Positions 1,571 to 33,695 of a DNA stretch of 64,000 bases are shown piece by piece. A model generated the notes under the pieces. That model was not told the origin of the DNA, ran no database searches, and saw only the letters and a list, made by a program, of their open reading frames with translations. Position 1 is the first letter of the stretch. Every line of letters starts with the position of its first letter. Both the position numbers and the translations under genes were made by a program. The DNA is from an uncultured Pseudomonadota bacterium (GTDB lineage: Bacteria > Pseudomonadota > Alphaproteobacteria > RF32 > CAG-239): positions 10,541 through 74,540 of the forward strand of contig CASFNB010000006.1 of assembly GCA_949295915.1 (NCBI GenBank). The letters run 5' to 3'.

Positions 1571-1608
1571 TATGATAGGAAACAGCCTTAGATTAATAGG
1601 AAAAAAAT

Positions 1609-1956
1609 ATGAAAAAACACATTTTTGCTCTTTTTATAATGGTAGGAATCCTCTGTGGCTGTGATAATCAAGCTAAAATAGATAATAATAAAATTTATTT
1701 TTTCTTTTATGATGGTTGTCCTTATTGCCACTATGCCATGGAATATATCAACAAAAAATATCCCGATTTGGAAATGACCAAAGTTGATGTTTACCAAGCT
1801 GAAGGCTACAAACTTTTTGAAGCCTGCGGCGATAAGTTTAACTTGGAAAGTATCGGAACCCCGCTATTTTGCATGGGAGATAAATATATCATGGGCTGGT
1901 CTAAAAACAATGAACGCAAATTTGACCGCTTTGTAAAGCCGTTTATAAAGGAATAG
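1609..1956 (+). CDS. Thioredoxin/glutaredoxin-fold lipoprotein (CPYC motif)
   Basis: Lipobox MVGILCGC, followed by the redox motif GCPYCH in a ~100 aa domain. Confidence 0.65.
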   Translation: MKKHIFALFIMVGILCGCDNQAKIDNNKIYFFFYDGCPYCHYAMEYINKKYPDLEMTKVDVYQAEGYKLFEACGDKFNLESIGTPLFCMGDKYIMGWSKNNERKFDRFVKPFIKE

Positions 1957-2002
1957 AATGAATATCTTAAAAAGAGGCCGATAAACAGCCTCTTTTATTT
2001 TA

Positions 2003-2234
2003 TGGCGTACCCGGGGGGCTTGAGGAAGAAATAATCTCCGGTGGAGATTATTTCAACGAAAGGCGCAGATTTGTTAGTTTTGAGGCAAGTGATAACGCTG
2101 CCGATAAAGCGTTACAAATCAAGTGACCGCAGCGCAGTTTGTGAGCTTGCGAACTTACAAGCAAGAACGAACCCGGGTTCGACCATCCGGAAAGCCATGA
2201 CAAAAAAGCCGTCTTCATCAGACGGCTTTTTTTA
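2003..2234 (+). repeat. tRNA-end-associated mini-element, Arg-type unit 1 (232 bp) carrying a tmRNA-tag-like frame
   Basis: Plus-strand order is as follows. TGGCGTACCCGGGGGG copies the last 16 nt of the adjacent tRNA-Arg. A 12-bp hairpin lies at 2028-2054. A start-less frame reads ...RRRFVSFEASDNAADKALQIK-TGA (tag-like part 2085-2126). Then come a hairpin holding the stop codon, a GCTTG-N8-CAAGC hairpin, a T-arm/acceptor mimic CCCGGGTTCGACCATCCGGAAAGCCA, and a hairpin with A/T runs at 2202-2233. Confidence 0.85.
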
Positions 2235-2466
2235 TGGCGTACCCGGAGGGCTTGAGGAAGAAATAATCTTCGGCGAAGATTATTTCAACGAAAGGCGCAG
2301 ATTTGTTAGTTTTGAGGCAAATGATAACGCTGCCGATAAAGCGTTACAAATCAAGTGACCGCAGCGCAGTTAGTGAGCTTGCGAACTTACAAGCAAGAAC
2401 GAACCCGGGTTCGACCATCCGGGAAGCCATAACAAAAAAGCCGTCTTCATCAGACGGCTTTTTTTA
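2235..2466 (+). repeat. tRNA-end-associated mini-element, Arg-type unit 2 (232 bp)
   Basis: Near-identical to 2003-2234 with an exact 232 bp period. Begins TGGCGTACCCGGAGGG. Tag-like frame at 2317-2358 reads ANDNAADKALQIK-TGA. Directly abuts the CCA end of tRNA-Arg. Confidence 0.85.
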
Positions 2467-2543
2467 TGGCGTACCCGGGGGGATTCGAACCCACGACCCT
2501 CGGCGTCGGAGGCCGATACTCTATCCAACTGAGCTACGGGTAC
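2467..2543 (-). tRNA. tRNA-Arg (anticodon CCG)
   Basis: Hand-folded cloverleaf: acceptor GTACCCG/CGGGTAC, D stem GCTC/GAGT, anticodon stem TCGGC/GCCGA with loop CTCCGAC, T loop TTCGAAT, encoded CCA. One U-C mismatch in the T stem. Confidence 0.9.
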
Positions 2544-2718
2544 ATCAAACAAACACCATACTCTTACACCGCTTTAACACACTTTTCCAGCAAAATTTTG
2601 CACTTTTTCGCACCTTTACTCCTCATTTTACAAAATTTCACTTGACTATTTGTCTAAATCTATGTATTAACAAGCAACAAGTTCTGTTCAAAAGATAAAA
2701 TTTAAGGAAAAAATAACA

Positions 2719-2997
2719 ATGGCTAAAAAGTGTGATATTTCAGGCACCGGCGTTATGAGCGGCAACAATGTCAGCCACGCTAACAATAGAACCCGTCGTC
2801 GTTTCTTGCCTAACTTACAAGTTGTTTCACTCTTAAGTGAAAAACTTAACCGAATTTTCAAATTGAAAGTTTGCTCAAAAACTTTGCGTTCTATTGAACA
2901 CAATGGCGGTTTGGATGCTTATTTAGAATCCACCTCTAACAGCAAATTGAGCGATGAAGCTATCAAAATCAAAAAAACTATTGCTAAAGCAAAATAA
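2719..2997 (+). CDS. rpmB: 50S ribosomal protein L28
   Basis: MAKKCDISGTGVMSGNNVSHANNRTRRRFLPNLQ matches the conserved L28 N-terminus. Terminator follows. Confidence 0.9.
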   Translation: MAKKCDISGTGVMSGNNVSHANNRTRRRFLPNLQVVSLLSEKLNRIFKLKVCSKTLRSIEHNGGLDAYLESTSNSKLSDEAIKIKKTIAKAK

Positions 2998-3022
2998 TAA
3001 TCAGGCTTCATAAAAAAGTTTC

Positions 3023-3055
3023 AAATACCTTCTCTTTTGAGAAGGTATTTTTTTA
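3023..3055 (+). terminator. Rho-independent terminator after rpmB
   Basis: ATACCTTCTC / GAGAAGGTAT stem followed by T7. Confidence 0.75.
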
Positions 3056-3153
3056 TCCCCGATATCCACAAACCTCTATGTAGAATTTAGATTGTATTTA
3101 ATGTTTTTTTTGTTTATAAAATCAGCAGCCAATAATTTAATTGAAAGAAGACC

Positions 3154-4635: not shown

Positions 4636-5069
4636 TGACAAAAGATTTTTGGCAACATAAGAAATTATCCGAGTTTTCAGAAGCCGAATGGGAAAGCATT
4701 TGCTGCCGTTGCGGTCGTTGCTGCCTGATAAAACTGCAAGATGAAGATAGTGATGAAGTTTATTACACAGACTTAGTCTGCCGCTATTTTAATCATGAAA
4801 ACTGCACCTGTACAGAGTATCAAAATCGCTGCAAACTGGTACCCGAATGTTTAAAACTAGATAAGGATAATGTTGATAAAATCAGCTGGATGCCGAAAAA
4901 CTGCGCTTATCGTTGGTTATCTGAAAAAGGTATCTTGCCGCCATGGCATCCGCTGATAACGGGCAAGCCCTTAGAAGAACAACATAGCATCAAAAACCGC
5001 TGCATTTCTGAAACTCTTGTCCCCGAAGAAGAATGGGAAGACCATATTTTGGAGGATGAAGAACCATGA
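4635..5069 (+). CDS. ycgN: UPF0260 (YcgN-like) cysteine-rich protein, copy 1
   Basis: FWQHKKLSEFSEAEWESICCRCGRCCL ... CAYRWL ... PPWHPLITG closely follows the E. coli YcgN pattern. Confidence 0.8.
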   Translation: MTKDFWQHKKLSEFSEAEWESICCRCGRCCLIKLQDEDSDEVYYTDLVCRYFNHENCTCTEYQNRCKLVPECLKLDKDNVDKISWMPKNCAYRWLSEKGILPPWHPLITGKPLEEQHSIKNRCISETLVPEEEWEDHILEDEEP

Positions 5070-5575
5070 GTTCGGACAATAAAAAATTTGCCTCGGAAGA
5101 ATATGATCCGCAAAGCCGCTTTGACCATCTTGACCGATTCGAACCCGAATTTTGGAAAAAGAAAAAACTGGAAGAAATGAGCAAAGAAGAATGGGAATTG
5201 CTTTGCGACGGTTGCGGAAAATGTTGCTTGAACAAAATTGAAATTAAGGGCAAAATTAAATTTACCAACACGCGCTGCCGATTCTTAGATTGTAAAAATT
5301 GCTTATGCCGCATCTATGAGCATCGCTTTGAAAAAGTTTCCGATTGTCGCGATATTGACATAAAGGCTATCAGAGAAAAACCACGTTGGTTACCGAAAAC
5401 CTGTGCTTATTGGTTGCTTGACAACGGCTATGACTTACCTTCTTGGCATCCGTTAATCACAGGAAAAGCCAAGAGCGTGCATGAAGCCAAAATGTCTTTG
5501 CAAGGACGCGAAACCGTATCTGAAACGGGAATAGAAGACTATGAAAATTACGTTATTGACTGGCAAGACCTTTGA
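5066..5575 (+). CDS. UPF0260 (YcgN-like) protein, copy 2 (tandem paralog)
   Basis: FWKKKKLEEMSKEEWELLCDGCGKCCL ... CAYWLL ... PSWHPLITG ... IDWQDL. ATGA overlap with copy 1. Confidence 0.8.
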   Translation: MSSDNKKFASEEYDPQSRFDHLDRFEPEFWKKKKLEEMSKEEWELLCDGCGKCCLNKIEIKGKIKFTNTRCRFLDCKNCLCRIYEHRFEKVSDCRDIDIKAIREKPRWLPKTCAYWLLDNGYDLPSWHPLITGKAKSVHEAKMSLQGRETVSETGIEDYENYVIDWQDL

Positions 5576-6251
5576 TATTCAAGCCGCATTGAATATGGAT
5601 ATCAAAATCATCAAATCGCCAAAGGCCAAACGCTTGACCTTGCGAATTGATACCAAAGAGCATTTGCCGATTTTAACGATTCCCAGCCGTTGCAGTGCCA
5701 AAAGAGCGGTTGAATTTGTAGAAATGCACCGTACATGGCTGGAAGAAAATTTAGAAAAAATTCCGGTAGCCAAACGTTTTGAAAATGGCGAGATTATTTC
5801 CATCATGGGCAAAGAATACACCATCAATCATTGTCCGCAAAAACGCTGCGGTGTTTTGATAAATGAAAACACTCTGATTGTATCCGGTGCAAAAGAATTT
5901 ATGCATCGCCGCATTTGCGATTTCATTAAAAAAAATGCAAAAGAAGAGCTATTCAAAAAATCTAAAATTTTGGCAGCCAAAATCGGTTGTCACGTTAACT
6001 CAGTCAGCATCAAAGACACCAAATCTCGCTGGGGAAGCTGCTCAAGTCTCGATAACATAAACTACAACTGGCGTATTAGTTTAGCCCCCAAATATGTTAT
6101 CGATTATCTGGTAGCCCATGAAGTTTCACACCTTCTGCACCAAGATCATTCAAGAGAATTTTGGCAATGCGTCAAAAAACTTTGCCCCAATGCAGCCAAA
6201 GGCAGATTATGGCTCAAAAATCACGGCAAAGAATTATACCTATATGAATAA
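5541..6251 (+). CDS. YgjP-like (DUF45/M48-type) metal-dependent hydrolase
   Basis: C-terminal HEVSHLLHQDHSREFW zinc-binding HExxH signature typical of this family. Confidence 0.75.
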   Translation: MKITLLTGKTFDIQAALNMDIKIIKSPKAKRLTLRIDTKEHLPILTIPSRCSAKRAVEFVEMHRTWLEENLEKIPVAKRFENGEIISIMGKEYTINHCPQKRCGVLINENTLIVSGAKEFMHRRICDFIKKNAKEELFKKSKILAAKIGCHVNSVSIKDTKSRWGSCSSLDNINYNWRISLAPKYVIDYLVAHEVSHLLHQDHSREFWQCVKKLCPNAAKGRLWLKNHGKELYLYE

Positions 6252-19017: not shown

Positions 19018-19968
19018 ATGTTTTTCAAAAAAAATCATCCGCAAACCGAAATTGAAAAAATCGAATTTAACACATCTGAAAAGCCGATTTACATTCTCGG
19101 TGATGATGACTTAGCTCTCTTTCTGGCTGCCAAGCTTCAGGAAAATGAACAAAACGTTATATTGTTAACAACCAAAGCACCGGCTTCCGGCATGCAAAAA
19201 CTCAAAATCACTTTAAAAGAAGAATATAACTTACAAAAAAATGATATTTTTCTTTTAACCACTTCTTATATCAAACAAGCTCCGGCAGCAATTTTGATAG
19301 CAAGCAAACTTAATTCTTTTCGAGCACATTTAACCTTATTACCGAAAATGCAAAATTTTAATATTCCGGTTGTCTACTTTAACCCCATGTCAGACTTAAC
19401 GGAAATACACCCCTTATTTGGCGCTTCTTTTTACAAAGCTTATTTCAACGGCTATTTAAGTTTTAACGGCTCCAACTTAACATCTTGCGGTTTAATGCCC
19501 GAAATATTAATTTCTGCCAAAAAAGAAAATGATAAAAACTTGCCTGTGGAACAAATTTTAGCACTGACCGGTCTAAAAATAGTCGTTCACGAAAAAGATG
19601 CTTACAATTTTTGGAAAAACAATGCCTCTCGCATTATTGGTTATCTGACGACATATCCCAAGCAACACATTTTAGACATCCTCAACAACAAAGACGGCAA
19701 AGAAAAATTAATATCCGCAGTACACGAAATATGCCGGCTGGCAAAATATGAAAAGATAAAACTCTCGGAAGATGAAATTGTCAGAGAACTTCTGGATACG
19801 CCTCGAGAATTTTATTATAAAAAAAGCACATTTTCTAAAATTGAAAATGCCTCTTTTTTAGAAAAACTGTATAACATGCTAAGCGAAAAAGCTCGAACTT
19901 ATAAATGTAAAATTCCAGAACTCAACCAATTGATAAAAAAAAACTACGAATATCTCTTAAGAAAATAG
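19018..19968 (+). CDS. Hypothetical protein, degenerate ketopantoate-reductase (ApbA/PanE)-like
   Basis: Rossmann-like IYILGDDDLALFLAAKL lacking GxGxxG. The overall layout resembles ApbA plus its C-terminal domain. Weak call. Confidence 0.35.
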   Translation: MFFKKNHPQTEIEKIEFNTSEKPIYILGDDDLALFLAAKLQENEQNVILLTTKAPASGMQKLKITLKEEYNLQKNDIFLLTTSYIKQAPAAILIASKLNSFRAHLTLLPKMQNFNIPVVYFNPMSDLTEIHPLFGASFYKAYFNGYLSFNGSNLTSCGLMPEILISAKKENDKNLPVEQILALTGLKIVVHEKDAYNFWKNNASRIIGYLTTYPKQHILDILNNKDGKEKLISAVHEICRLAKYEKIKLSEDEIVRELLDTPREFYYKKSTFSKIENASFLEKLYNMLSEKARTYKCKIPELNQLIKKNYEYLLRK

Positions 19969-19986
19969 GCACGGCATAATTTATGA

Positions 19987-21129
19987 TTGATGCTTGAAGA
20001 AAATACAAAAACAAGATATAACATGGTTAATATAAACAACGGGGCTTCTACCATGACAAATGAGTTCATTTTAACTTTGGTTACTTTGATTGCGGGAATT
20101 TCTTTCGGCTTTACCGGTTTTTATGTCTACAAACAAAAAGCCCAAACATTATCCTCCGCCTTTTTAAAAAAAGAATTAGCATTTGCCCCAATTTATATCA
20201 GTAGTGTTATTATACTCTCACTTTTATATTTCATCACCCCCAAGGAAGATGACTTTATCCATGATTTTTCTGCCCTGGAACTTTTTGTACCGCTCTTGCT
20301 CGCCGGCATCTGCTATGTACTGACTTTATTTACCCAAACGGCAAAATTTATCAATATTTTTATCATTGCGGCAATAAGCATCTCTGTTTATTTTCTGCCC
20401 CCCGATTTTTTAATGTTTAAAGGCTACCTCTCGTTATGGGCTGACCGCCTTGCCATCATCTTGTTATGGTCTGTTTTTTCTTGTTTTTACTATATTTTGA
20501 ATGGTGTTGACGGTATTTTACCTATTTTCAGCGCCTCCTATCTGATTTGCTTGATTATACTATCCTTATTTGATGCCGCCCCTGCTTTTTACGGCTTGAC
20601 CGGACTGGCACTGTTGTGTATCAACGGCTCTTTTTTGGCATACAACTGGTTTCCCGCCAAAATAACATTAAGCAACAATTCATGCAAAATTTTTGGTTTT
20701 ATGTTAGGAGGTATTATGACATTTGCCGGTTCGGAAAATCTGGCACCATGCTTTGCCATAATATTAACAATTTTTGCATTAGAACTTTTACAAAGCATTT
20801 TCAAAAAACTTTCTTTACGCAACCGCTACGCCGATTTGAACACCAATACAATTTGTTACCAAGCTCATATCAGCGGGCTCACTCCGAACCAAGTTTGTTT
20901 TGCCATATTCAAAGTTCAAATTTTATTTATCATATTAGGATGCTTCCAAGCCTACCTTCCCAATAATTATTCATTGCCGATTGCCTCTTTGTTCTTAGCG
21001 GCATGGTTCTTAAACAAACTCAAAAACTGGGATGAACCGACACAAAGCTTAAAAGAAATCAATCAAGAATTTGTAAGTGATTTACGCCAAAACATAAACG
21101 ATATAAAAAACAGCTTAAAACGAGATTAA
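19987..21129 (+). CDS. Polytopic membrane protein, MraY/WecA (glycosyltransferase family 4)-like
   Basis: About 10 hydrophobic segments and an LNGVDGI motif resembling the DGxDG(L) of polyprenyl-phosphate sugar-phosphate transferases. Likely start at 20053. Confidence 0.45.
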   Translation: MMLEENTKTRYNMVNINNGASTMTNEFILTLVTLIAGISFGFTGFYVYKQKAQTLSSAFLKKELAFAPIYISSVIILSLLYFITPKEDDFIHDFSALELFVPLLLAGICYVLTLFTQTAKFINIFIIAAISISVYFLPPDFLMFKGYLSLWADRLAIILLWSVFSCFYYILNGVDGILPIFSASYLICLIILSLFDAAPAFYGLTGLALLCINGSFLAYNWFPAKITLSNNSCKIFGFMLGGIMTFAGSENLAPCFAIILTIFALELLQSIFKKLSLRNRYADLNTNTICYQAHISGLTPNQVCFAIFKVQILFIILGCFQAYLPNNYSLPIASLFLAAWFLNKLKNWDEPTQSLKEINQEFVSDLRQNINDIKNSLKRD

Positions 21130-21130
21130 C

Positions 21131-22498
21131 ATGAACTTATTAAACAAAATAAAACAAATGTTTTTCTCATCCGGTTCTCGAAAAAATGAACCGGAGTTTG
21201 TTTTTGATATCAGTAATCTGATAAAATTCAAAGTTGTTGTTATTGAGTTTTCAGACAATGTAGAAAGCAGAAGTGGAGAAATCATTGCCAAAAAGCTTCA
21301 ACAACAAGAAGGATTGGAGGTTTCTTATTTTGAAGATCCTTTTCCCAAAAATTTTCTCAATTTAGATAATCGCACTTTATTTGACCTAATAGATAAAGGG
21401 CTCAACATAATAGACCACACACACGCCGATGTCTTAATCTGGGGTTATCGCGAAGGAGATAAAATCCGTATCAATTTTCAAAATGCCAAACAATATGAAA
21501 AAGATGACAATGCTTTCATTTCTTTAATGGACAGTTTTTACATTCCGGCAGATTTAAGCAGCTCTGAGGTCGATTTTCCCCCGGCATTAAACAATTTGAT
21601 TTACGGTGGTGTTATCAGCGCTATCAACCCGCACAATAAAGAAACGCAAATTCAAAAAAAATTTCTTCTGAAAAAAATTATCAATAGTTTATCAAAAGAC
21701 AATTCTGCCAAGTCATTATCCATTGAATATATGCCTTATATCATGAACTTGCTTGGTGTCATTTATTTGAGCTATGCCTATGATCGCGGCGACGGTAAAG
21801 ATTATAAAATTGTCAAAAATTTATTTGATACGGCACTCAGTCATCAAGATTTAATCAAGAACCCCATTCACCTCGGCTGTATCTACAATCATTTGGGGCA
21901 ACTTTACGATGCCTCCAGCGAATATTCTATCAAACGCCCGATAAATCACCTGCGTAACGCCATAAGTTATTTTAGGCAAGCGCAAAAATATTTAACAAAA
22001 TACAATTATCCTTACGATTATGGTTATATATCCTATCGCTTATCACAATTATTCTATACTTACTGGCGACAAAAAGATGATATTCAAGCCTTGCGTGATG
22101 CTGTTTTCCAACTACGTGAAGCCGAAAAAATTTATACCTACGCCCTTTTCCCCGAATTTTGGGCAACCATTCAAGGCGAACTGGCACATATGCTATCTTT
22201 ACTCGGAAACTTCAGTAACAGTGAAGAACTCTGTGAACTTGCCATTGCCAGCTACAAAAACCGTCAAAAAGTAATAACCGAAAAAAGAGATCCGCTGGAA
22301 TGGGCTAATATTCAAACCCATATTGGCGAAATCTACTATCGTTTAGGCAAAAACAGTGAAGACAAATCTTTGTTGGAAGAAGCTTTGGAATATTTCCACG
22401 ATGCCTTATATGTGTATGAAGATAAACAAATGACAGAAGAAACCAAAAAAGTTTCAACTGACATAGCCAAAGCCAGCCATAGCCTCAATTTTTTGTGA
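21131..22498 (+). CDS. Hypothetical protein with TPR-like helical repeats in the C-terminal half
   Basis: Repeating about 34-40 aa helical units (…W..IQ..LG..Y…). No catalytic motif. Confidence 0.45.
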   Translation: MNLLNKIKQMFFSSGSRKNEPEFVFDISNLIKFKVVVIEFSDNVESRSGEIIAKKLQQQEGLEVSYFEDPFPKNFLNLDNRTLFDLIDKGLNIIDHTHADVLIWGYREGDKIRINFQNAKQYEKDDNAFISLMDSFYIPADLSSSEVDFPPALNNLIYGGVISAINPHNKETQIQKKFLLKKIINSLSKDNSAKSLSIEYMPYIMNLLGVIYLSYAYDRGDGKDYKIVKNLFDTALSHQDLIKNPIHLGCIYNHLGQLYDASSEYSIKRPINHLRNAISYFRQAQKYLTKYNYPYDYGYISYRLSQLFYTYWRQKDDIQALRDAVFQLREAEKIYTYALFPEFWATIQGELAHMLSLLGNFSNSEELCELAIASYKNRQKVITEKRDPLEWANIQTHIGEIYYRLGKNSEDKSLLEEALEYFHDALYVYEDKQMTEETKKVSTDIAKASHSLNFL

Positions 22499-22505
22499 GA
22501 AGGAA

Positions 22506-22970
22506 ATGATTTTTTGTTCCATTATGAACACGCCTTATGGAAACATCTTGCTTGAAGCCGAAAATGATCAATTAATCGGCTGCCGTTTTATTTTTACTTC
22601 CTCATTCAAAAATGACAACCAAGAAACCCCTTTTTTACAAAATGTAAAAAAACAGTTGGAAGAATATTTTTCCGGCATCAGAAAAATTTTTGACATCAAA
22701 ATGGCTCCTACGGGAACGCCTTTTCAACAAAGCGTATGGCAAGCCTTACAAAAAATCCCATACGGACAAACTGCAAGCTACCAAGAAATTGCCAAAAGAA
22801 TTAATAATCCCCAAGCTTCCCGCGCGGTAGGCATGGCCAATAATAAAAACCCCATAGCCATAATCATTCCTTGTCACCGCGTAATCGGAAGCAACGGCAA
22901 GTTAGTTGGTTACGCCGGAGGCTTAAATTTAAAACAACAACTTTTAGAATTAGAAAAAAATAACCTATAA
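22506..22970 (+). CDS. ogt: Methylated-DNA--protein-cysteine methyltransferase
   Basis: Active site IIPCHRVIGSNGKLVGYAGGL and the upstream YGQTASYQEIA helix. Confidence 0.9.
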   Translation: MIFCSIMNTPYGNILLEAENDQLIGCRFIFTSSFKNDNQETPFLQNVKKQLEEYFSGIRKIFDIKMAPTGTPFQQSVWQALQKIPYGQTASYQEIAKRINNPQASRAVGMANNKNPIAIIIPCHRVIGSNGKLVGYAGGLNLKQQLLELEKNNL

Positions 22971-22980
22971 GAGAAAAAAC

Positions 22981-23322
22981 ATGAGACAATTTTATCCCAT
23001 AATTCTTTTAACCATATCAAATATATTCATGACTTTTGCTTGGTATGGGCATTTAAAGTTCAAATCCACGGCATTATGGATTGTCATTTTAGCCAGCTGG
23101 GGTATTGCTTTTTTTGAATATATTTTTTAAGTTCCGGCCAACCGTATCGGACATGAGTTTTTCAGTGCCGCACAACTAAAAATTATGCAAGAAGCCATCA
23201 CCATTATTATCTTTTGCATATTTTCAATTCTGTATTTAAAAGAAGACTTAAAATGGAACTATCTTGTCGGCTTTGCCCTAATTTTACTTGCCGTCTTTTT
23301 TGTGTTTAAGAAATGGGATTAA
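22981..23322 (+). pseudogene. DUF486 (DMT-superfamily) membrane protein with in-frame TAA at codon 50
   Basis: My translation: MRQFYPIILLTISNIFMTFAWYGHLKF...FEYIF-TAA(23128-23130)-VPANRIGHEFFSAAQLKIMQEAIT...KKWD. Homologs have a sense codon at this point in the conserved VPANRIG context. Confidence 0.65.
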
Positions 23323-23455
23323 AATTAAAGCCGATAGGCTTTTGCGACCTACTCTCCTCAACAAAAAAGCCCGCTTTCGCAGGCTTTTTTATGGCGGTGT
23401 AGTAAACTTAAACGGTACCAGGCATACTAAAGCTTCACATTGCCCAAGCCAAATA

Positions 23456-23584
23456 ACAGGGAATCTACAGGGAATTTTATCTTATTTCTCTCCCCTCATA
23501 CTATCATGTTTACCTTGAATTACTTAGCTTATCCAAACATCCCTCCCCAAATTATCAGGGAATTTAAAATAAAAAACAGGGAAA
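23456..23584 (+). repeat. Four direct copies of (A/T)CAGGGAA(T/A) upstream of hamA
   Basis: ACAGGGAAT at 23456 and 23467, TCAGGGAAT at 23555, ACAGGGAAA at 23576, all in non-coding DNA at the left edge of the AT-rich island. Confidence 0.6.
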
Positions 23585-23680
23585 TAGTAAAAAAATAAAC
23601 CCATAGTATAAAAAGTTTTAAATATTGAATATTCCTCAATTTTTAATAAAATCACTAACATAAAAATAAGGAAGGACTGC

Positions 23681-24628
23681 ATGGTTGAATATAAAAAAAC
23701 ATCATATTCAGACGGATTTGGAATTTTTAATAGAATTCACAAAGAAGATTTGGATGGTGTTAATAATAACGTCCTCAATCTCTACATGTTAAATACAGAA
23801 AATAAACTTTTTAATTATGACCAGTTATATGAATATTTGCTTCAAAATATCTGCCAATATGTTTTTGACCGAAGAAAAATAAACGAAACACAAAATGATC
23901 CTATTAAATCAAGAACAATCATTCTTGATGCTCTCAGTCAATTGAGAAAAATAACCTCGGATAAGGATCAAGGTGCTGGTGGAGAATTAGGAGAAATTTT
24001 ATTATATATTTTTTTAGAACAAGATTTAAACGCCCCTAAACTGTTTAGTAAGGTAGAATTGAAAACAAATCCTCAAGATTATGTAAAAGGAGCAGACGGA
24101 ATTCATTTTAAATTCCGAACAGATACGGAAGGAAAGAAAATTCTACAACTAGTGATCGGTGAGGCGAAGATAGATAATGATCTAAACAATGGAATTAATG
24201 CGGCATTTAAATCTATTAATACATATTTATCAAATAATACCCAAGATATTATACTGCTTGATACTCATTTAATGAACCAAATGGTAAATGAAGAAGAAGC
24301 AAACGAACTTAAAGAATATATTTTATCTGTTCCTCGAAAGAAAAAAGAAACCATCTTTGGTATATTTATAGGATATAGCATAAAATATGAAGGAAAAGAA
24401 GATAATAATGACAATTATGATAAAAAAATAATTCAAGAAAATTTGCAACAAGTTATGAATTACAGACAAAAAATAATTGATAAAATTAACGATTATCATG
24501 TTAGTAATTACGAATTTAATTTTTATTTCTTACCTTTTCACAATGCGATGAATGATCGAAAAATTATTATTGATCAACTTACCTCTGGACATCCCCATTT
24601 TTCACGGAAGGAAATTCGTAATGGTTAA
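23681..24628 (+). CDS. hamA: Hachiman defence protein HamA (DUF1837, PD-(D/E)xK-type nuclease)
   Basis: GELGEILLYIFLE motif. GADGIHF ... VIGEAK gives the D...ExK nuclease signature. Overlaps the downstream helicase gene, matching the Hachiman two-gene layout. Confidence 0.75.
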   Translation: MVEYKKTSYSDGFGIFNRIHKEDLDGVNNNVLNLYMLNTENKLFNYDQLYEYLLQNICQYVFDRRKINETQNDPIKSRTIILDALSQLRKITSDKDQGAGGELGEILLYIFLEQDLNAPKLFSKVELKTNPQDYVKGADGIHFKFRTDTEGKKILQLVIGEAKIDNDLNNGINAAFKSINTYLSNNTQDIILLDTHLMNQMVNEEEANELKEYILSVPRKKKETIFGIFIGYSIKYEGKEDNNDNYDKKIIQENLQQVMNYRQKIIDKINDYHVSNYEFNFYFLPFHNAMNDRKIIIDQLTSGHPHFSRKEIRNG

Positions 24629-27224
24629 AAATTTAGCTGATTTTCTCCTTAAAGATATTGCAGAAGATGCTAAATTAAAACAAAGTTTTGCTTATCTCTT
24701 GACAACATATCTAAATTATTTAACCGGCCATGGAGAGATTCAATATAATGATAAATTTCAGTTATTATTGCAATATGCTGATTTATTATCTCTATCAAAT
24801 ATAGAACAACACCAAAATATAGCTCAGCAAATTGTAATTCTATTATCACTGCTTTTTCCTCAAAAAAACATTGTAAACATCGTCAAAGAAAATATTTATA
24901 AAAACGTTTCAAATTTTGCATCAATAGATTTATTATTAAAAAATAATAAATTAGCAAAAATTAATAATGAATTTATGCATAATGTAATGTATACTATGCA
25001 TCGTATTGAAAACAATATTCCCGATTCCGATAAAAGCTTTTTTGATGCACAAAAAACAATATTATCCTCTTTGGAAACAAACCAGTATTATAGCTTTTCA
25101 GCTCCAACATCAATGGGAAAAACCTTTGTATCATTGAGTTTTATTAGGAATATGTTAAAACAAAATTCTTGTGATAATTTTGCCATTATCGTTCCAACTA
25201 GAGCATTGCTATCAGAAATTGCAAATAAAATTATTAATGATTTTAAAGATTATCTCGGAAATAATCGTCACAAAGTGGTTACCACAACCGCAGTTGTACA
25301 GGAAGGAGAAAAATTTATAGCGGTTTTAACTCCTGAACGTTTATATTATTCTATACTAAAGAAACCTGAAGTTCAATTCAAATACATATTTATTGATGAA
25401 GCACATAAAATTTCTGGAAACGACAAAAGAAGTATTATTTATTATAAAATACTGGATATGTTCAAAACAGATAATAACATTCATATATATTTTTCTTCAC
25501 CTATAATTCCTAATCCAGATATCTACTTAGAACTTACAAATTTTTATTCAAACAGCAACTCTTCTGGAAAGGCCTTTGTTTTTTCACCTGTAATACAAAA
25601 TAAGATTTATCTTAACTTTCTAGAACAAAAAATTCAGATATATAACAATATAACAAATGAAGTTCTCAATGGAACGTCATTTCCTCACAATATTACTGAT
25701 AAAATGCAAGCTCTGTTATTTTTTGGCAAAAATAAATGTAATTTGATTTATGTTTCATCGGCAAATAAAGCTATTAAATATGCTTTAGAACTAGCGAATA
25801 CTGTAGAAACATATAATTTATTTCCTCAAACAGATGAGGTGAAAAAAGAATTAGAAAAAGCATCAAAACAAATAGAACAAAAAATACATCAAGACTATTA
25901 CTTAGCTAAATTAATTCGACAAGGTATAGCTTATCATATAGGAGCTCTTCCTGGAGAAGTAAGAACACAAATAGAAGATCTTTTAAAAAAAGGATATTTA
26001 CGGTATTGTTTCTGCACAAGTACCTTACTAGAGGGTGTTAATGTTCCTGTTGATAATCTCTTCATATTTGACAGTAAAAAAGGTAGAAGCGAAATGTCAA
26101 CAATTGACGCTTTCAATTTGATAGGAAGAGCTGGTCGAGTAACCTTAAATGAATATGGTAATGCCTTTATAATTATTGAAGATAATAGAACTCAGCAATA
26201 TTTTAATAAGGTTTTACTAAATCCTCTTCCTCATCAAGATTTGTTACCTCAAAAGACCTTACAAAAAAAACATAAAAAACATATTGTTTCTGTTCTATTA
26301 GATGGAAAAACAAACCTCCTAGAAGAAGGAGAAAAATATTCTTCTCACGGATTTAACGAAACAACATATGAATACGCCACAAAATGTCTAAATATGCTTT
26401 TACAAGATATATGCACTAAAAATAAAAGTTATATAGTTAAAGATTTTGAAAAAGATGAAATTCTATCACCTCAAAATATCATTGACATAAGAAACAAATT
26501 TTCAAATTTCCAACAAGATGATAACGATATAAACTTATCTGCTCTACAAAAAAATAGTTTATATGATGCTGTTTTAAATAAAAATATAAATTACCCTAAT
26601 TCATTTGATTATCAATCATGTCTAAGTTTTTTAAAGGAACTGTCAGAAATATTTCAATGGCAAATATATGAAAGAACTTCATTAGGTAGAGGAGAAAGTC
26701 TAAAATATTATACTGTTATTTTAACACAATGGATGCAGGGAAAAGGTTTACATGAGATAATTAGGAGTGCAATTAATTATTACAGAGAACACTCATGCCA
26801 ATTACAAGTCTATGAACCCACTTATAGACTCGTAGATTATGATGATTCCTTAGAACACAAAAACATTATAATTAACGAAACAATGAAAAATATAGAAGAA
26901 ATTATTAATTATAAATTCTCAATGTACTTTTTAAGATTATCAGAAACGCTAATAAAATTACAAGGTGAAAGTGCGTTAATTAATGATTGGTACGAATATG
27001 TAGAGTATGGAACCAATAATCATTTAGTTATAACATTACAAAAATATGGATTTTTAAGAGAGGAGGCAATTTCTCTCATTAATCCTCAGTATATAAAATA
27101 TATTAATTTAGTCGAAAATCATATACAAATTGATATTGATCTCATAAATGTTGTTCCTCTTGAACTTAAAAACTCTATACAAACAGTAATGATTAACTAC
27201 CCTGAAATTTTTTATATTGAATAA
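24621..27224 (+). CDS. hamB: Hachiman defence helicase HamB (SF2 DExH helicase)
   Basis: Motif I APTSMGKTFV, motif II FIDEAHKI, motif V LLEGVNVP, motif VI LIGRAGR, and a long C-terminal domain. Start set at ATG 24621, overlapping the hamA stop by 8 nt (ORF-track start is 24552). Confidence 0.8.
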   Translation: MVKNLADFLLKDIAEDAKLKQSFAYLLTTYLNYLTGHGEIQYNDKFQLLLQYADLLSLSNIEQHQNIAQQIVILLSLLFPQKNIVNIVKENIYKNVSNFASIDLLLKNNKLAKINNEFMHNVMYTMHRIENNIPDSDKSFFDAQKTILSSLETNQYYSFSAPTSMGKTFVSLSFIRNMLKQNSCDNFAIIVPTRALLSEIANKIINDFKDYLGNNRHKVVTTTAVVQEGEKFIAVLTPERLYYSILKKPEVQFKYIFIDEAHKISGNDKRSIIYYKILDMFKTDNNIHIYFSSPIIPNPDIYLELTNFYSNSNSSGKAFVFSPVIQNKIYLNFLEQKIQIYNNITNEVLNGTSFPHNITDKMQALLFFGKNKCNLIYVSSANKAIKYALELANTVETYNLFPQTDEVKKELEKASKQIEQKIHQDYYLAKLIRQGIAYHIGALPGEVRTQIEDLLKKGYLRYCFCTSTLLEGVNVPVDNLFIFDSKKGRSEMSTIDAFNLIGRAGRVTLNEYGNAFIIIEDNRTQQYFNKVLLNPLPHQDLLPQKTLQKKHKKHIVSVLLDGKTNLLEEGEKYSSHGFNETTYEYATKCLNMLLQDICTKNKSYIVKDFEKDEILSPQNIIDIRNKFSNFQQDDNDINLSALQKNSLYDAVLNKNINYPNSFDYQSCLSFLKELSEIFQWQIYERTSLGRGESLKYYTVILTQWMQGKGLHEIIRSAINYYREHSCQLQVYEPTYRLVDYDDSLEHKNIIINETMKNIEEIINYKFSMYFLRLSETLIKLQGESALINDWYEYVEYGTNNHLVITLQKYGFLREEAISLINPQYIKYINLVENHIQIDIDLINVVPLELKNSIQTVMINYPEIFYIE

Positions 27225-27252
27225 AAAAGGTTTCGCTATTTCAAATATTTAT

Positions 27253-27747
27253 TTAAAAAATGTCAATAACACCGTTCCTTTTTAATTCTATTAATAATTT
27301 ATCCAGAGTTTGTCCTGCCCAAATTATCAATTTAATATTATTTACAGATGGAACTTTTGAACCATGAAAGAAGTTACAGCGTATTTTATAAACGACTTTC
27401 AAATAATAATAAAGATTATTTTTGTTGCTATTAAAACGTGCTATAATTTTTTCTTTCCCATAAAGTCCTAATCTGCTGCCTTGTTCATCCTTGTAAGGGA
27501 TCATTTTAAATGATTGCACAAAACCATTTTTCAAAGCATTATAAACCTTTTGAGCCGCTTTATTTTTAGATAATTGCACCGATCCTAAAACATCTTTCAT
27601 ATGATATGTTTTAGAATACCAACTATTATATTGCATCCAAGTAAACATAAAATGAAGGACTTCTTGTTGTTCTTGTGGTAACAAATCTCCTCTCATCCAA
27701 AACGTCCAATCGGCTACTGTTAACTTCTCATTTTTCCTTGTTACCAT
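27253..27747 (-). CDS. HEPN-domain protein (Rx4H), candidate stand-alone abortive-infection RNase
   Basis: YKIRCNFFHGSK contains the R-x4-H HEPN catalytic motif in an all-helical ~160 aa protein. Convergent with hamB. Confidence 0.55.
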   Translation of the reverse strand: MVTRKNEKLTVADWTFWMRGDLLPQEQQEVLHFMFTWMQYNSWYSKTYHMKDVLGSVQLSKNKAAQKVYNALKNGFVQSFKMIPYKDEQGSRLGLYGKEKIIARFNSNKNNLYYYLKVVYKIRCNFFHGSKVPSVNNIKLIIWAGQTLDKLLIELKRNGVIDIF

Positions 27748-27755
27748 ATCTCAAA

Positions 27756-28019
27756 TTACTCTCCAATGACTTTCAGCAAATCATCATATGTTTCGATGAT
27801 TTTATATTTAATGGTATCAGAGCTGATGGCAGCGAAATGTTTTCTGGCACAAGCTGTTTTTGATTTTTCAACACCTCTTAATTCCAGCTCTAAATTTTCC
27901 ATATTTCCCTTAGTTTTGTTCGCTTTTATTAAAACCTTATCATAGGGCTTAATTTTCAGCCCGAACTTTTCAATTTTAACTCCTACTGTTTTCTTAGCCC
28001 TTATGGCTCCTTTTAACGG
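27756..28019 (-). pseudogene. Remnant resembling the C-terminal domain of restriction-enzyme/helicase R subunits
   Basis: An open frame with no credible start reads ...KIKPYDKVLIKANKTKGNMENLELELRGVEKSKTACARKHFAAISSDTIKYKIIETYDDL. This follows the pattern (x)E(x)KG...K..AA..F...n...Y.i seen at such C-termini. The only ATG ORF inside is 48 codons (27756-27902). Confidence 0.3.
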
Positions 28020-28616
28020 TTACATATTTTTGATGTGGATGGTTAGGTTTGTCTGGGTACATTAACTCCAAACTTCCTTTTTTTATTAAAATATTTAAAA
28101 TGCTTTCTTTGAAATATTTTCTATCTTTATACCCCATAAACTCCATTATATCCAACGCCTTTTTAGGTACCTGACAAAAAGTAAGAATTTTCTCTTCTAT
28201 TGTACCATCAACCGCATTTCTAGCTTGGGGGGGGTAACTTGAGGGGTAACTTGGGGAGTGTCCTTAGGGGTATTGGGAGCAAACTGACGGAAAAAGTCAA
28301 TTTTCCAGTCAACTTTAAACACTTCGCTGTCTTCCAATACCGGTTCATGACCGGCATAGGACTTGGCATACTTGGTTATCTTTCGCACTCCGGAACCTAA
28401 TTCATCGGCCAAACCAATCTCTTTAAAGAAGTTCGCCAAAATAGGATTTTTCGGGTGCGGTATATTTATATCAGGGTTAATATTGCCATGGATAAACGGT
28501 TTATTAGCATTTTCTATGGTTATTTTGTCTGCCTCAATAATCAAACGGGCGTAATAACGATAGGTAAATTCTCTGTGAATCAGCATATTGACCGCAATTT
28601 CTCTAAATAAAATCAT
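27994..28616 (-). pseudogene. Fragment of an AlbA_2/HATPase_c_4-type (RecG-like) ATP-binding regulator, 5'-truncated and frameshifted
   Basis: REIAVNMLIHREF...NPILANFFKEIGLADELGSGVRKI...TPQVTPQVTP stops at 28197. The expected wHTH tail continues in another frame (IEEKILTFCQVPKKALDIMEFMGYKDRKYFKESILNILIKKGSLELMYPDKPNHPHQKY). The frame change coincides with a G8 run at 28227-28234. Confidence 0.6.
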
Positions 28617-29097
28617 TTATCAGAAGGATCGCCTGACATTCTTTTTTAATACCGATCCGATAACCCTCTCAGCCTATAGTGGCGATTCGCTGAACCAAAA
28701 CGATAATCCACTGGAGTTTATAGCAGATAATGTCAACAACCAAATCATCTATGAAAAACAGGTCGTTATCAACCGCGGACTGTCAAGCAATGTCTATAAC
28801 GCCGGAAAAGTTGGACTGATGAGTATCAATGATAACAATCGACTCATTGTCCGTGCCTTAGCTTATACTTGGAAATTTAAGAAACTCTACGAAAAGGGAC
28901 TAAGCACCGATGACATAGCCAAACAAGAAAAAATGTCGAAACGAACCATCTACAAATACCTAAATCTTGCCTACCTCTCACCAAGAATAGTTAATCAACT
29001 TCTCGATGGAACCTTAAACATTAACCTTCAAACACTTTTTGAAATCGCCTCTAAAAACCTGAGTTTTGACGAGCAGGAAAAGATGTTAGCTATTTAA
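28588..29097 (+). pseudogene. C-terminal fragment of a serine-recombinase-type protein (mobile element remnant)
   Basis: LIVRALAYTWKFKKLYEKGLSTDDIAKQEKMSKRTIYKYLNLAYLSPRIVNQLLDG resembles the HTH tail of resolvase/invertase-family recombinases. No catalytic N-terminal domain is present. Confidence 0.4.
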
Positions 29098-29153
29098 TAG
29101 CCTAATTTACATTAAAAATTTTTCAGAATATCATTCATTATGGCAAAAAATTT

Positions 29154-29798
29154 GTGGATAAGAAAATGAGTGAGATTCAAAAACAATACTATCAACAACT
29201 TCAAAACCAGCTAAAGATTATGTGCAGTGCAACTATTCACGCACTAATTGATACCTATATGCTTATGTTTCCTGAGGCATACAAACAGGAAAACAAAAAT
29301 ACCTTTATGTTTCGATATACTTTTTATGCTTTTCAGCAAAGAGCTATGATTTCTGTTAGAAAGTTAATTGAACCTTCAAGTAAAAACAAAATTACAATTG
29401 AATCTATTGTTAAATTAGCTACGAAACCAGATTTTTCACTTTTGTCTGAAAAAGAGAAAACTGCATTAAAAGCTGATTATGATGAGCTATTCAACTCAGA
29501 AGAAACAAAAAGGATAAAAGAATTTCGAGATGCTTTGTGTCATAATCTTTTAGATGGAGATAAAGCAATGTATTATTATAATGATTTTATGTTTATTGTT
29601 AGCGGATCAATTCATATTTTAGAACAACTATACCTGATTGTTCTATCATCGCTCCCAACTTTTTTTGTTGAAGCTCGAAATATTGCAGAATATTTAGCAG
29701 CTAATTATTGGCAAGCTTTTGATAAAGCCGCAAAAAATTCTAACAATAATCATGATATAAATACTAAATTACAGAAGCTTCTAGATGGTGAATTTTAA
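29154..29798 (+). CDS. Second HEPN-like protein (Rx4H; AbiU2-like candidate)
   Basis: KEFRDALCHNLLDG contains R-x4-H. Helical protein of about 210 aa next to tRNA-Ser at the island edge. Confidence 0.45.
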   Translation: MDKKMSEIQKQYYQQLQNQLKIMCSATIHALIDTYMLMFPEAYKQENKNTFMFRYTFYAFQQRAMISVRKLIEPSSKNKITIESIVKLATKPDFSLLSEKEKTALKADYDELFNSEETKRIKEFRDALCHNLLDGDKAMYYYNDFMFIVSGSIHILEQLYLIVLSSLPTFFVEARNIAEYLAANYWQAFDKAAKNSNNNHDINTKLQKLLDGEF

Positions 29799-29972
29799 GG
29801 AATGAAGTGACTCTGCAAAAATCGGCAATGTATGTAACTGCCGGAAATTTTGCGTTTTTTGATTTTAAACGAGCTTACCATAGTCAATTTAGCAAAGTCA
29901 AGCGCCAGCAAAGCCCGCAATTCCGCAGGATGCAAAAAAAGACGCTATATCTAAGCGTCCTTTCAACTAAAA

Positions 29973-30064
29973 TGGCGGAGAGATAGGGATTCGAACCCTA
30001 GGTACCCGTTACCGAGCACAATTGATTTCGAGTCAACCGCATTCGACCACTCTGCCATCTCTCC
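29973..30064 (-). tRNA. tRNA-Ser (anticodon CGA)
   Basis: Acceptor GGAGAGA/TCTCTCC, anticodon loop CTCGAAA, long variable arm, T arm TAGGG-TTCGAAT-CCCTA, encoded CCA. Confidence 0.9.
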
Positions 30065-33242: not shown

Positions 33243-33378
33243 AGACAGCGCCGACGATAAAGCCTTACAAATCGAGTGACCGCAGCGCCGTTAGTGAGCT
33301 TGCGAACTTACAAGCCAGACAGGGATTTTAATCCCTTCACCCAGATACAAAAAAACCTCCACTACGGGAGGTTGGAAT
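33243..33378 (+). repeat. tRNA-end-associated mini-element, Gly-type partial unit (5'-truncated)
   Basis: Retains ...SADDKALQIE-TGA (stop 33277-33279), the conserved CCGCAGCGCCGTTAGTGAGCTTGCGAACTTACAAGCC core, the tRNA-Gly-like T-arm/acceptor mimic CAGGGATTTTAATCCCTTCACCC, and the hairpin CCTCC-N6-GGAGG. Confidence 0.8.
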
Positions 33379-33620
33379 TGGAGCGGGCTGAAGGAAAGAA
33401 AAAACTTCTGTGAAGATTTTTCTGACGTCAGGCGAAGATTTGTTAGCTTTGAGGCGAGTGACAACGCCGCCGACAAAGCGTTACAAATCGAGTGACCGCA
33501 GCGCCGTTAGTGAGCTTGCGAACTTACAAGCCAGACAGGGATTTCAATCCCTTCACCCGTATAAACTAAATTTGAGATAAAAAAAAGACCTCAACACTTT
33601 TCGTGGAGGTCTTTAGAAAT
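33379..33620 (+). repeat. tRNA-end-associated mini-element, Gly-type full unit (242 bp)
   Basis: Begins TGGAGCGGGCTGAAGG, a copy of the tRNA-Gly 3' end with one inserted C. Hairpin at 33397-33423. Start-less frame ...RRRFVSFEASDNAADKALQIE-TGA (33454-33495). Ends with CAGGGATTTCAATCCCTTCACCCG and a hairpin that has a T8 run on the minus strand. Abuts tRNA-Gly. Confidence 0.85.
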
Positions 33621-33695
33621 TGGAGCGGGTGAAGGGATTCGAACCCTCGACATCAACCTTGGCAAGGTTGCGCTCTACCCCTGAGCTACGCCCGC
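33621..33695 (-). tRNA. tRNA-Gly (anticodon GCC)
   Basis: Acceptor GCGGGCG/CACCCGC (one C-A mismatch), D stem GCTC/GAGC, anticodon stem CAACC/GGTTG with loop TTGCCAA, T loop TTCGAAT, encoded CCA. Confidence 0.9.

Follow-up and report, generated by a model that had tools for sequence, protein, structure and literature searches.

The genes of tRNAs are the classical landing sites of mobile DNA in bacteria, and the specificity of landing is thought to reside in the integrase protein. A given family of integrase-dependent elements uses one tRNA site or very few, with a fixed block of identity, and sublocation classes for integration within tRNA genes were reportedly set out by Williams in 2002. 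Among smaller elements, the Rickettsia palindromic elements (RPE) are alphaproteobacterial and can sit in RNA genes. In integrative mobile elements exploiting Xer (IMEX) of the CTX-phi type and in integron cassettes, folded single-stranded DNA forms the recombination site, according to two papers (PMC3442271, PMC4792948). Here, we analyse a 64,000-nucleotide stretch (hereafter the window) of contig CASFNB010000006.1 from an uncultured alphaproteobacterium, in which two tRNA genes are followed by short tandem arrays built around a non-coding module, BODY. The units of these arrays belong to a lineage-specific family of small protein-less insertion units, in which BODY lies inside a partial extra copy of the end of the neighbouring tRNA gene. 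Literature searches yielded no description of such elements, and the BODY family is probably new among small non-autonomous mobile elements associated with tRNA genes.

The window has a G+C content of 37% and contains three tRNA genes, all on the minus strand, as identified with ARAGORN and Rfam. A 40-nt core pattern with two N positions matches the window four times on the plus strand (2123-2162, 2355-2394, 33276-33315, and 33492-33531), compared with no match in 100 shuffles, and the matches form two pairs located directly 3' of tRNA-Arg and tRNA-Gly, respectively. An earlier note on this DNA had reported the recurrence of the core at tRNA-Gly in 1.6 tandem units, and the recurrence, the coordinates, and the sequences it gave proved correct. 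The Arg array comprises 2.1 copies of a 232-nt unit according to Tandem Repeats Finder (TRF), and the Gly array comprises two units, the first (33244-33378) truncated on its left side and the second (33379-33620) complete. On the plus strand, the elements of a unit follow each other in the order X, BODY, R, and terminator hairpin, after which the next X begins. X is the reverse complement of the tRNA 3' end, R is a hairpin with an extension, and BODY in the window units has 148 nt, running from CTKGAGG to GCMAGA.

Coverage extended to 64 kb for the genome itself and to pieces of 8 kb for related metagenome-assembled genomes (MAGs), and about 60 copies were gathered from related MAGs and contigs, referred to by L numbers. 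Scanning a genome collection with an 18-base core pattern returned 49 loci. About 30 of them were true copies, and every one of these came from a MAG of human gut, roe-deer rumen, or a similar source that bears the label uncultured Alphaproteobacteria or Proteobacteria; the others were chance matches in unrelated bacteria. A metagenome scan yielded four true copies among 40 matches, and a separate scan with the 20-mer GAGCTTGCGAACTTACAAGC gave no match in viral contigs and JGI metagenome contigs. Extra copies came from exact-protein look-ups of neighbouring genes and from spurious open reading frames (ORFs) of such arrays in public protein sets. The plasmid collection contained no match, and the phage collection a single one, MT837050, an unverified 7.9-kb "bacteriophage" scaffold with a tRNA-Pro copy. 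This record (MT837050.1, L101; "Bacteriophage sp." from human faeces) carries tRNA-Pro(TGG) with a BODY unit at 4800-5170, and it may be a bacterial fragment instead of a phage.

Each unit measures about 220-245 bp, encodes no protein, and bears a sense and an antisense copy of the end of the neighbouring tRNA in addition to the gene itself, which is intact at all loci. Proceeding outward, the order at every locus is the intact tRNA, a terminator, the antisense copy, a loop, the sense copy interrupted by BODY, and the native flank. When read in the orientation of BODY, the two flanks bordering the module (L|BODY|Rf) form contiguous tRNA-gene sequence, from which 2-4 target bases are missing at the junction. 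The left flank ends in GG(G) in all copies, so that the left junction reads GG|CT; the right junction reads AGA|N with a varied N. One of the flanks extends to the end of the tRNA gene, often through the terminator, and constitutes a direct repeat with the real gene, whose length is 8-9 nt for the Gly and Leu units, 16-20 nt for those of Arg, Lys, His, Val, and Ala, and 23 nt for the 5' unit of L089. In L056, L024, L041, L053, and L101, it reaches about 60-70 nt with the terminator included, and the tRNA-side terminator is nearly identical to the native terminator, which is now distal. A direct repeat composed of the terminator and the tRNA end indicates that the repeated DNA is derived from the target and was not imported.

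The interior flank of 7-12 nt is followed by a minimal loop of 2-5 nt (TT, GA, TC, or TTTA) and then by its inverted complement, which extends beyond the junction and copies the target in its uninterrupted form. The longest exact inverted match of a unit to its own tRNA is 13-15 nt at Gly, 14 nt at Val and at the 3' site of Ala(GGC), 13 nt at His, 9-11 nt at Leu, 7-8 nt at Lys, 6-8 nt at the 5' Ala sites, and mostly 7-8 nt at Arg (5 nt in the right-truncated unit of L049). The mean is 10.3 nt for the own tRNA vs. 5.4 nt for non-cognate tRNAs (maximum 9), confirming that the ends co-vary with the identity of the neighbouring tRNA. R, the terminator, and the gene end together make up one long quasi-palindrome centred in the terminator loop. 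In the full Gly unit, its arms (33539-33559 and 33626-33646) are 21 nt long and 86% complementary; the Arg units show exact blocks of 8 and 7 nt and a 17-nt, 82% quasi-palindrome spanning the terminator. A decayed inverted copy reaches a CCA-like end in Arg and Leu units and in type-2 units, which bear a second cargo (body2, see below), and the acceptor-like extension is almost nil in Val and His units. The turn-round point at tRNA-Lys differs between lineages, giving two designs. The tRNA-side terminator has a long T-run on the tRNA strand, with the run on the BODY strand being poor in Gly, His, and Val, and at tRNA 5' ends the terminator is replaced by an AT-rich spacer that contains promoter-like hexamers. 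From these T-run terminators at 3' sites and promoter-like spacers at 5' sites, we infer that the expression signals of the tRNA gene are kept.

With these comparisons, the claims of the earlier note about the unit ends can be refined. Its notion of a conserved module with target-specific, tRNA-derived ends holds at 11 tRNA species, and an element copying its target tRNA end in both orientations, one of the two explanations it offered, accords with the sense and antisense copies found in every unit. As it also stated, plain att duplication does not predict this arrangement. The Gly left end, which it equated with the tRNA-Gly 3' end, corresponds to it in the 9-nt TGGAGCGGG (33379-33387) only; the adjoining CTGAAGG is the element's own CTKGAGG motif and reads CTGGAGG or CTGGAGA in other Gly-locus copies. 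The Gly right end had been viewed as a mimic of the T arm and acceptor strand. It does contain the exact 14-nt inverted copy of the tRNA-Gly T-arm/acceptor, AATCCCTTCACCCG, made up of the 3' arm of R and its extension, but it is better described as a hairpin with a 3' arm that runs on into an inverted copy of the uninterrupted target. The likeness of the Arg right end to tRNA-Arg stands on its exact 8- and 7-nt blocks and is weaker than that at Gly. Pairing of the two ends with each other, as proposed, occurs in the Arg and Gly folds but is not general, since Val and His units have almost no acceptor-like extension.

BODY was found beside 11 tRNA species, namely those for Arg, Gly, Lys, His, Val, Leu, and Pro, two for Ser, and two for Ala (Table 1). 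The junction lies at the T-stem/T-loop boundary in Arg, Lys, His, Val, Ser, and the 3' Ala sites, in the acceptor 3' strand in Gly and Leu, in the D-loop at the 5' end in Ala(CGC), Ala(GGC), and the Arg gene of L089, and in the anticodon loop in Pro, where BODY occupies position 37/38 of a partial tRNA-Pro copy and the repeat has about 70 nt including the terminator. Relative to the tRNA, BODY has the antisense orientation at most 3' sites and the sense orientation at Ser, Pro, and 5' sites. In L089 (1700-2400), a single tRNA-Arg(CCG) gene has units at both its 3' and 5' ends in opposite orientations, and both read into the gene; the repeat of the 5' unit is the 23-nt GTATCCGTAGCTCAATTGGATAG.

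The same frame also houses a different non-coding cargo. This body2 comprises about 75 nt, starts with (C)TARGGAGGAG, and occurs in type-2 tRNA-Arg units, as "body3" at tRNA-Ser(GGA) in L059, and in tRNA-Ser(CGA) units in L055. Its surroundings follow the identical order of terminator, antisense copy, loop, sense copy, cargo, and tRNA end. BODY is nested in body2 units in inverted orientation in L010 and L057, and also in unit B of L059. The nested BODY in L010 is a simple insertion that replaces two bases without forming a new hairpin; neither a simple target-site duplication (TSD) nor a footprint model fits it. Because BODY can be nested inside body2 units, it moves independently of the flanks and behaves as an insertion module by itself.

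Empty and occupied alleles coexist within one species. Ten contigs of the same species-level lineage share an identical L28 protein and hence the same tRNA-Arg locus, which has no unit in L004 and L007, one unit in L005 and L009, two units in the window, a type-1 unit followed by a type-2 unit in L003, the opposite order in L011, and only a long type-2 unit in L010. In the empty L004 and L007, the ortholog of the terminator at 1969-2002, which bounds the array in the window, abuts the tRNA-Arg 3' end directly. Conspecific contigs also differ at tRNA-Gly, L105 having only the truncated unit and others the truncated and the full unit, with two alternative terminator types. The tRNA-Ser(CGA) site, empty in the window, has a BODY unit in three other contigs and a body2 unit in L055. 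The presence of empty and occupied alleles within one species identifies the units as insertions relative to the empty alleles. Two further arrangements were seen at these loci. L002, L006, and L008 (about 1-5825) have a genomic island at tRNA-Arg(CCG), encoding a 509-aa large serine recombinase, a DUF927 protein, an HTH_17 protein, and a small resolvase; the recombinase ORF extends about 66 nt into the antisense strand of the tRNA-Arg gene, and the island junction at tRNA-Arg in L002 lacks the BODY-type architecture. L114 (1-126) departs from all other same-species contigs exactly at the start of the truncated Gly unit (..AATAACA|GGTTCTACGTCAAAGATGGGGG..), which suggests a different arrangement or an insertion at the distal boundary of the Gly array.

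Across the family, BODY measures about 150 nt with copies 80-90% alike, and 21 distinct copies align with a mean column identity of 79%, the invariance of AGTGACCGCAGCGC being partly an artefact of the search pattern. RNAalifold predicted four helices: P0, three pairs of CUK with MAG (10 G-C vs. 8 U-A), P1, an A/T-rich hairpin, P2, a long-range pairing of GCG/CGC and GATTTGT/ACAAATC around a variable hairpin, and P3, an irregular hairpin. P0/P1 begins at the first nucleotide of BODY, and P3 stops 4 nt short of its right end. The fold is supported by covariation: standard pairs fill 95% of cells vs. 83.7% in column shuffles, both partners vary in 21 of the 38 pairs, and none of 500 shuffles reached the observed values. 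When the partners are slid by 1-3 columns, pairing falls to about 40%. The folds of the Arg and Gly units are strong as well (z = -6.9 and -4.8). The pairing of BODY consists of 743 Watson-Crick cells, 12 G:T, and 10 A:C, with a wobble excess on neither strand; the near-pure Watson-Crick pairing hints, without proving it, at a constraint on DNA or on both strands. The wobble pairs gave no answer as to the functional strand, as G:T and A:C are about equal in number.

Readings of the units as RNA genes were examined in several ways. BODY has no conserved ORF, and a promoter scan detected no conserved sigma-70-like promoter in the units; the candidate TTGTAA-17-TATCAT on the minus strand is part of the central hairpin, which is variable, and other copies do not contain it. 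Rfam, at the gathering threshold and at E<=10, returned only tRNAs and no tmRNA in either locus, and its matches Phe_leader and MIR395 reflect only the terminator with the long inverted repeat. ARAGORN identified no tmRNA in the window besides the three tRNAs. A tag-like ORF reading ANDNAADKALQIK in the Arg units and ASDNAADKALQIE in the Gly units, each followed by a stop, shows mostly third-position differences. Its frame exists only in the window and is broken elsewhere, in L024 (EKCDSTFDK...) and, by an in-frame stop, in L034. The "synonymous" differences are explained by pairing because they are compensatory stem changes (GGCA/TGCC to GGCG/CGCC, U:G to C:G). A tRNA-like acceptor domain of the tmRNA kind was rejected, given that the CCA-like end of the Arg units is paired with UGG of X in the fold, that Val and His units have no acceptor-like strand, and that the orientation of BODY varies. 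A closing stem between the 5' and 3' ends is not a general feature either; it is missing in Val and His because R has no acceptor-like extension there. The tmRNA-like reading is rejected, and the chimeric tRNA-like/mRNA-like RNA offered by the earlier note as its other explanation is not supported.

Enzymes that could move the units were sought within and around the arrays. The units contain no ORF of their own, Pfam revealed no integrase, transposase, or reverse transcriptase among about 40 ORFs of the window, no intI/attI adjoins the arrays, and no gene for a DEDD or serine recombinase lies near any copy. Clustering of 218 neighbouring ORFs gave only syntenic housekeeping genes and no recurrent recombinase near the arrays. 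With no recombinase, transposase, or reverse transcriptase near any array or among these window ORFs, the enzyme would have to act in trans.

Table 1. Coordinates of the arrays in the window, tRNA species bordered by BODY, and positions of body2 units in related contigs.
Feature	Position or locus	Strand	Remark
Native, bidirectional terminator of upstream glutaredoxin-like ORF	1969..2002	.	distal boundary of Arg array
X copy 1, TGGCGTACCCGGGGGG	2003..2018	+	reverse complement of tRNA-Arg last 16 nt incl. CCA; direct repeat
BODY, Arg unit 1 (CTTGAGG...GCAAGA), helices P0-P3	2019..2166	+	nhmmer, alignment, covariation
R, Arg unit 1	2167..2197	+	hairpin CGAACCC/GGGTTCG, then decayed sense tRNA-Arg 3' end (...GCCA)
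Terminator hairpin, Arg unit 1	2200..2234	.	A-run, GCCGTCT/AGACGGC stem, T-run
X copy 2, TGGCGTACCCGGAGGG	2235..2250	+	
BODY, Arg unit 2	2251..2398	+	
R, Arg unit 2	2399..2429	+	
Terminator, Arg unit 2	2432..2466	.	now serves tRNA-Arg gene
tRNA-Arg(CCG), intact	2467-2543	-	3' 16 nt (2467-2482) = X copy 3
tRNA-Ser(CGA)	29973-30064	-	site unoccupied in window
BODY, distal Gly unit, left-truncated	33244..33319	+	from about model position 30
R, truncated Gly unit, CAGGGATTTTAATCCCTTCACCCA	33320..33343	+	
Terminator type T1 (CCTCC...GGAGG)	33347..33378	.	strong on tRNA strand
X, TGGAGCGGG	33379..33387	+	9-nt direct repeat of tRNA-Gly 3' end
BODY, full Gly unit (CTGAAGG...GCCAGA)	33388..33535	+	
R, full Gly unit	33536..33559	+	hairpin AGGGAT/ATCCCT
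Terminator type T2 (GACCTC...GAGGTC)	33576..33620	.	8-T run on tRNA strand
tRNA-Gly(GCC), intact	33621-33695	-	
BODY at Arg(CCG)	many loci		
BODY at Gly(GCC)	many loci		
BODY at Lys(CTT)	L024, L033, L056, L081		
BODY at His(GTG)	L027, L102		
BODY at Val(TAC)	L034, L058		
BODY at Leu(CAA)	L014, L017, L018		
BODY at Ser(CGA)	L012, L021, L072		
BODY at Ser(GGA)	L059		
BODY at Ala(CGC)	L016		
BODY at Ala(GGC)	L053		both ends
BODY at Pro(TGG)	L101		
body2	L003 5569-5749		
body2	L011 5302-5517		
body2	L010 5380-5749		
body2	L055 6522-6830		
body2	L059		downstream of tRNA-Ser(GGA)

The arrays of the window have housekeeping genes as neighbours (rpmB and dnaB; a glycosyltransferase and a cytidylyltransferase gene), and the promoter region of the last of these genes is fused with the truncated Gly BODY. 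The terminator stem of the two Arg units (GCCGTCT...AGACGGC) shares 9 of 10 bases with the Neisseria DNA uptake sequence, a likeness that is probably coincidental given the host and the differing terminators of other units. The arrays also produce spurious ORFs of 63-141 aa (2041-2358 and 2303-2698 in the window; 5556-5981 in L005), and public protein sets contain predicted proteins derived from them, with eight matches, all from such arrays. In practical terms, the arrays thus cause false ORF calls and fragment metagenome assemblies. The stretch 3' of tRNA-Ser(CGA) (19018-29972) resembles an integrated island, with three ORFs without a Pfam match (19018-22498), an 890-aa ResIII/DEAD helicase (24552-27224), a RecG-C-like HATPase_c_4 fragment, a resolvase-type HTH_7 fragment, and more unknown ORFs, and may be a defence island or a remnant of one.

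We favour an explanation in which BODY, and likewise body2, would be mobile but non-autonomous, depending on an enzyme whose gene lies elsewhere, with the tRNA-specific ends made from the local target when a unit is founded and not carried between sites. Construction of the frames at founding is suggested because there are 11 tRNA-specific frames, the native terminator is often included in the repeat, and the turn-round at tRNA-Lys varies. The founding step is, in our view, most likely copy-choice (fold-back) DNA synthesis with two turn-rounds, one about 10 nt inside the insertion point and the other in the terminator hairpin; a sense-antisense-sense order with switch points in a minimal loop and a terminator hairpin is the signature of synthesis that changed its template twice. 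Since the first turn-round always lies 7-12 nt from the BODY junction, insertion and turn-round appear to be linked. The product would be a sense-antisense-sense triplication acting as a decoy that bears the insertion, so that the essential tRNA gene survives, and the number of units would change later by recombination between repeats. The decay or absence of the far inverted copy in Arg, Val, and His would be expected of a by-product. We give this account as a whole, with a non-autonomous module in a locally made decoy, founding by copy-choice, and survival of the tRNA gene, slightly less than an even chance. That the units are insertions, that the tRNA gene stays whole, and that the flanks derive from the local target in two orientations is held much more firmly.

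Several observations weigh against this explanation. The stems of the R hairpins are better conserved than the neighbouring spacers, with loops varying; the Val units of L034 and L058 share them without change, six Gly-locus species show no variation in them, and conservation above that of the surroundings suggests that the R hairpin is functional and not a passive scar. The terminator of the type-1 Arg units is unlike the native one, which points to import of a whole cassette or to a terminator from another strain. The BODY nested in L010 lacks a fold-back copy, so that insertion need not be accompanied by triplication. No decoy frame free of cargo was found in a sampling that was based on BODY, and homologous recombination alone could produce allelic presence and absence. 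The copy-choice step itself is pure inference, with no enzyme, transposition intermediate, or transcript observed.

The conservation of the R stems, the foreign terminator of the type-1 Arg units, and the nested insertion without a fold-back are also the reasons to keep a serious rival, in which BODY, R, terminator, and X move together as a whole-unit cassette by site-specific recombination within X, catalysed by a recombinase acting in trans. Folding of R, terminator, and X, probably in single-stranded form, would produce a mimic of the duplex target with BODY as a side branch, much like integron attC sites and the folded attP of CTX-phi. Such a cassette would explain why units are modular with differing orders (L003 vs. 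L011), why the Gly array of the window mixes two terminator lineages, and how the regenerated target permits tandem accretion; all pieces of the unit fit one dumbbell-plus-branch fold, the varying loops accompany conserved stems, and the almost pure Watson-Crick pairing of BODY without strand asymmetry is as expected of DNA hairpins. However, the recombinase would have to accept at least 11 unrelated cores at four kinds of tRNA position, and its gene adjoins no array. Val and His units lack the acceptor-side arm of the mimic, the native terminator in many repeats points to an origin in place, and the orientation of BODY relative to X varies. We regard whole-unit movement as rather unlikely. 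A model in which BODY is the scaffold of a guide RNA, its tRNA-matching flanks pairing with the two target strands on either side of the crossover as in the bridge (seek) RNAs of the IS110 family, is weaker, although it would make the element programmable for any tRNA. It draws on one scaffold serving many targets, on a junction that always follows GG(G), and on flanks that equal the top strand left of the junction and the complement across it. The absence of any Rfam match to guide or bridge RNAs, of a nearby gene for a DEDD or other recombinase, of a conserved promoter, of a dinucleotide core common to donor and target, and of an excess of G:U over A:C makes it very unlikely, and recombination of the IS110 type does not generate variable long repeats of 8-70 nt.

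A family of small-RNA genes, tRNA-like or tmRNA-like, with ends mimicking tRNA for RNase P, RNase Z, the CCA enzyme, or regulation and with arrays arising through duplication, could account for the strong, covariation-supported fold and for the T-arm-like and acceptor-like 3' parts with a CCA-like end before the terminator in Arg, Leu, Ser, and Pro. Yet BODY stands in either orientation to the tRNA-like parts, so that no one transcript design suits all copies. The tag-like ORF lacks conservation, matches to tmRNA or tRNA-like structures and a conserved promoter are absent, Val and His units have no closing stem, Gly, His, and Val units have a terminator that is strong on the tRNA strand alone, and strains free of units exist, so that we strongly doubt this origin. 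Ordinary scars, in which attL lies next to attR as a remnant of integrase-borne islands and is then duplicated in tandem, would be in keeping with direct repeats of the tRNA end, their classical signature, and tRNA-Arg(CCG) is a real integration hot spot, as the island in L002, L006, and L008 demonstrates. To place the same BODY at 11 tRNAs, however, islands that are nearly identical but have 11 specificities would be required, att scars show neither an inverted copy of the uninterrupted target nor this fixed architecture, and the junction of the L002 island does not have this architecture; we consider this origin highly improbable.

A further possibility gives the cargo a specific role. BODY and body2 might be the nucleic-acid part of a templated insertion, either of a retro-type or by DNA copy-choice, or of a recombination programmed by its own copy of the target. 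In the templated form, priming would take place at GG(G) inside the tRNA gene, and the reaction would build the fold-back decoy of the tRNA end and terminator. This would be the bacterial counterpart of the "safe-haven" strategy of eukaryotic short interspersed nuclear elements (SINE) and retrotransposons targeted to tRNA genes. We consider it unlikely, though well within reach, and a mechanism of a new kind has perhaps one chance in four. Regardless of the mechanism, one protein-less module of about 150 nt resides at no fewer than 11 tRNA genes with flanks taken from the local target both ways, and the gene is kept. If the flanks are made during insertion, this would be a new way for a mobile element to create its own harmless landing pad; if they direct insertion, the unit would amount to a targeting device that is programmable by nature. 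The many targets, the empty sites, and the nested insertions make the family a comparative data set for studying the mechanism.

Compared with integrative elements at tRNA genes (P4-like and others), the BODY units share the intact tRNA, the direct repeat of a terminal segment, empty sites in relatives, insertion at the T-loop, anticodon loop, or 3' end, and tandem accretion at a regenerated site. They differ in being only 230 bp in length without an integrase, in bringing one cargo to 11 tRNAs at four sublocations and also to 5' ends, in having repeats of 8 to about 70 nt that often include the native terminator, and in adding an inverted copy of the uninterrupted target with a loss of 2-4 bases at the junction. 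The RPE, Correia, and REPIN/BIME elements are likewise short (100-150 nt), non-coding, hairpin-rich, and lineage-specific, with an enzyme that is unknown or acts in trans. They do not carry cognate copies of a target at their ends, and their sites are not limited to tRNA genes. Their signatures, terminal inverted repeats (TIR) with TSD or REP sequences, are not seen in BODY. Unlike miniature inverted-repeat transposable elements (MITE), the ends of BODY are inverted over 4 nt only (CTKG...CMAG), with K and M not co-varying, and a TSD of fixed length is replaced by repeats of 8 to about 70 nt and the loss of 2-4 bases.

The CTX-phi-type elements and integron cassettes resemble the BODY units in the inverted target copy separated by a short spacer from the regenerated target, in forming tandem arrays, and in consisting of small promoterless units, each apparently ending in an imperfect palindrome. 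The quasi-palindrome of R, terminator, and X (arms of 17-21 nt, 82-86% complementary) may correspond to a foldable end of the attC kind, with the R'/R'' boxes (GTTRRRY) absent. The known elements use one fixed target (dif or attI) with XerCD or IntI, in contrast to many targets without a recombinase at the site. Like the bridge (seek) RNAs of IS110/IS1111 and the internal guide sequences of IS200/IS605 elements such as IS608, BODY units bear nucleotides matching the target, which could make specificity reprogrammable, and BODY has subterminal hairpins and no long TIR, which may recall IS200/IS605 derivatives. It lacks sequence or Rfam similarity to either group and an adjacent transposase, and its target-matching segments are much longer (11-15 nt or more). 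Its junctions (GG|CT and AGA|N) have no common core dinucleotide as in IS110. The constant GG(G) at the left may be compared with the short insertion motif of non-autonomous IS200/IS605-type elements (PATE), though the target has lost 2-4 bases and the units lie between long repeats. The inverted triplications of the DUP-TRP/INV-DUP type, generated by template switching or fold-back priming at hairpins or quasi-palindromes, show the same sense-antisense-sense order with switch points in hairpins, here the terminator and the minimal loop. Those triplications are sporadic, whereas the BODY architecture recurs at 11 tRNAs with a specific cargo and a GG(G) junction.

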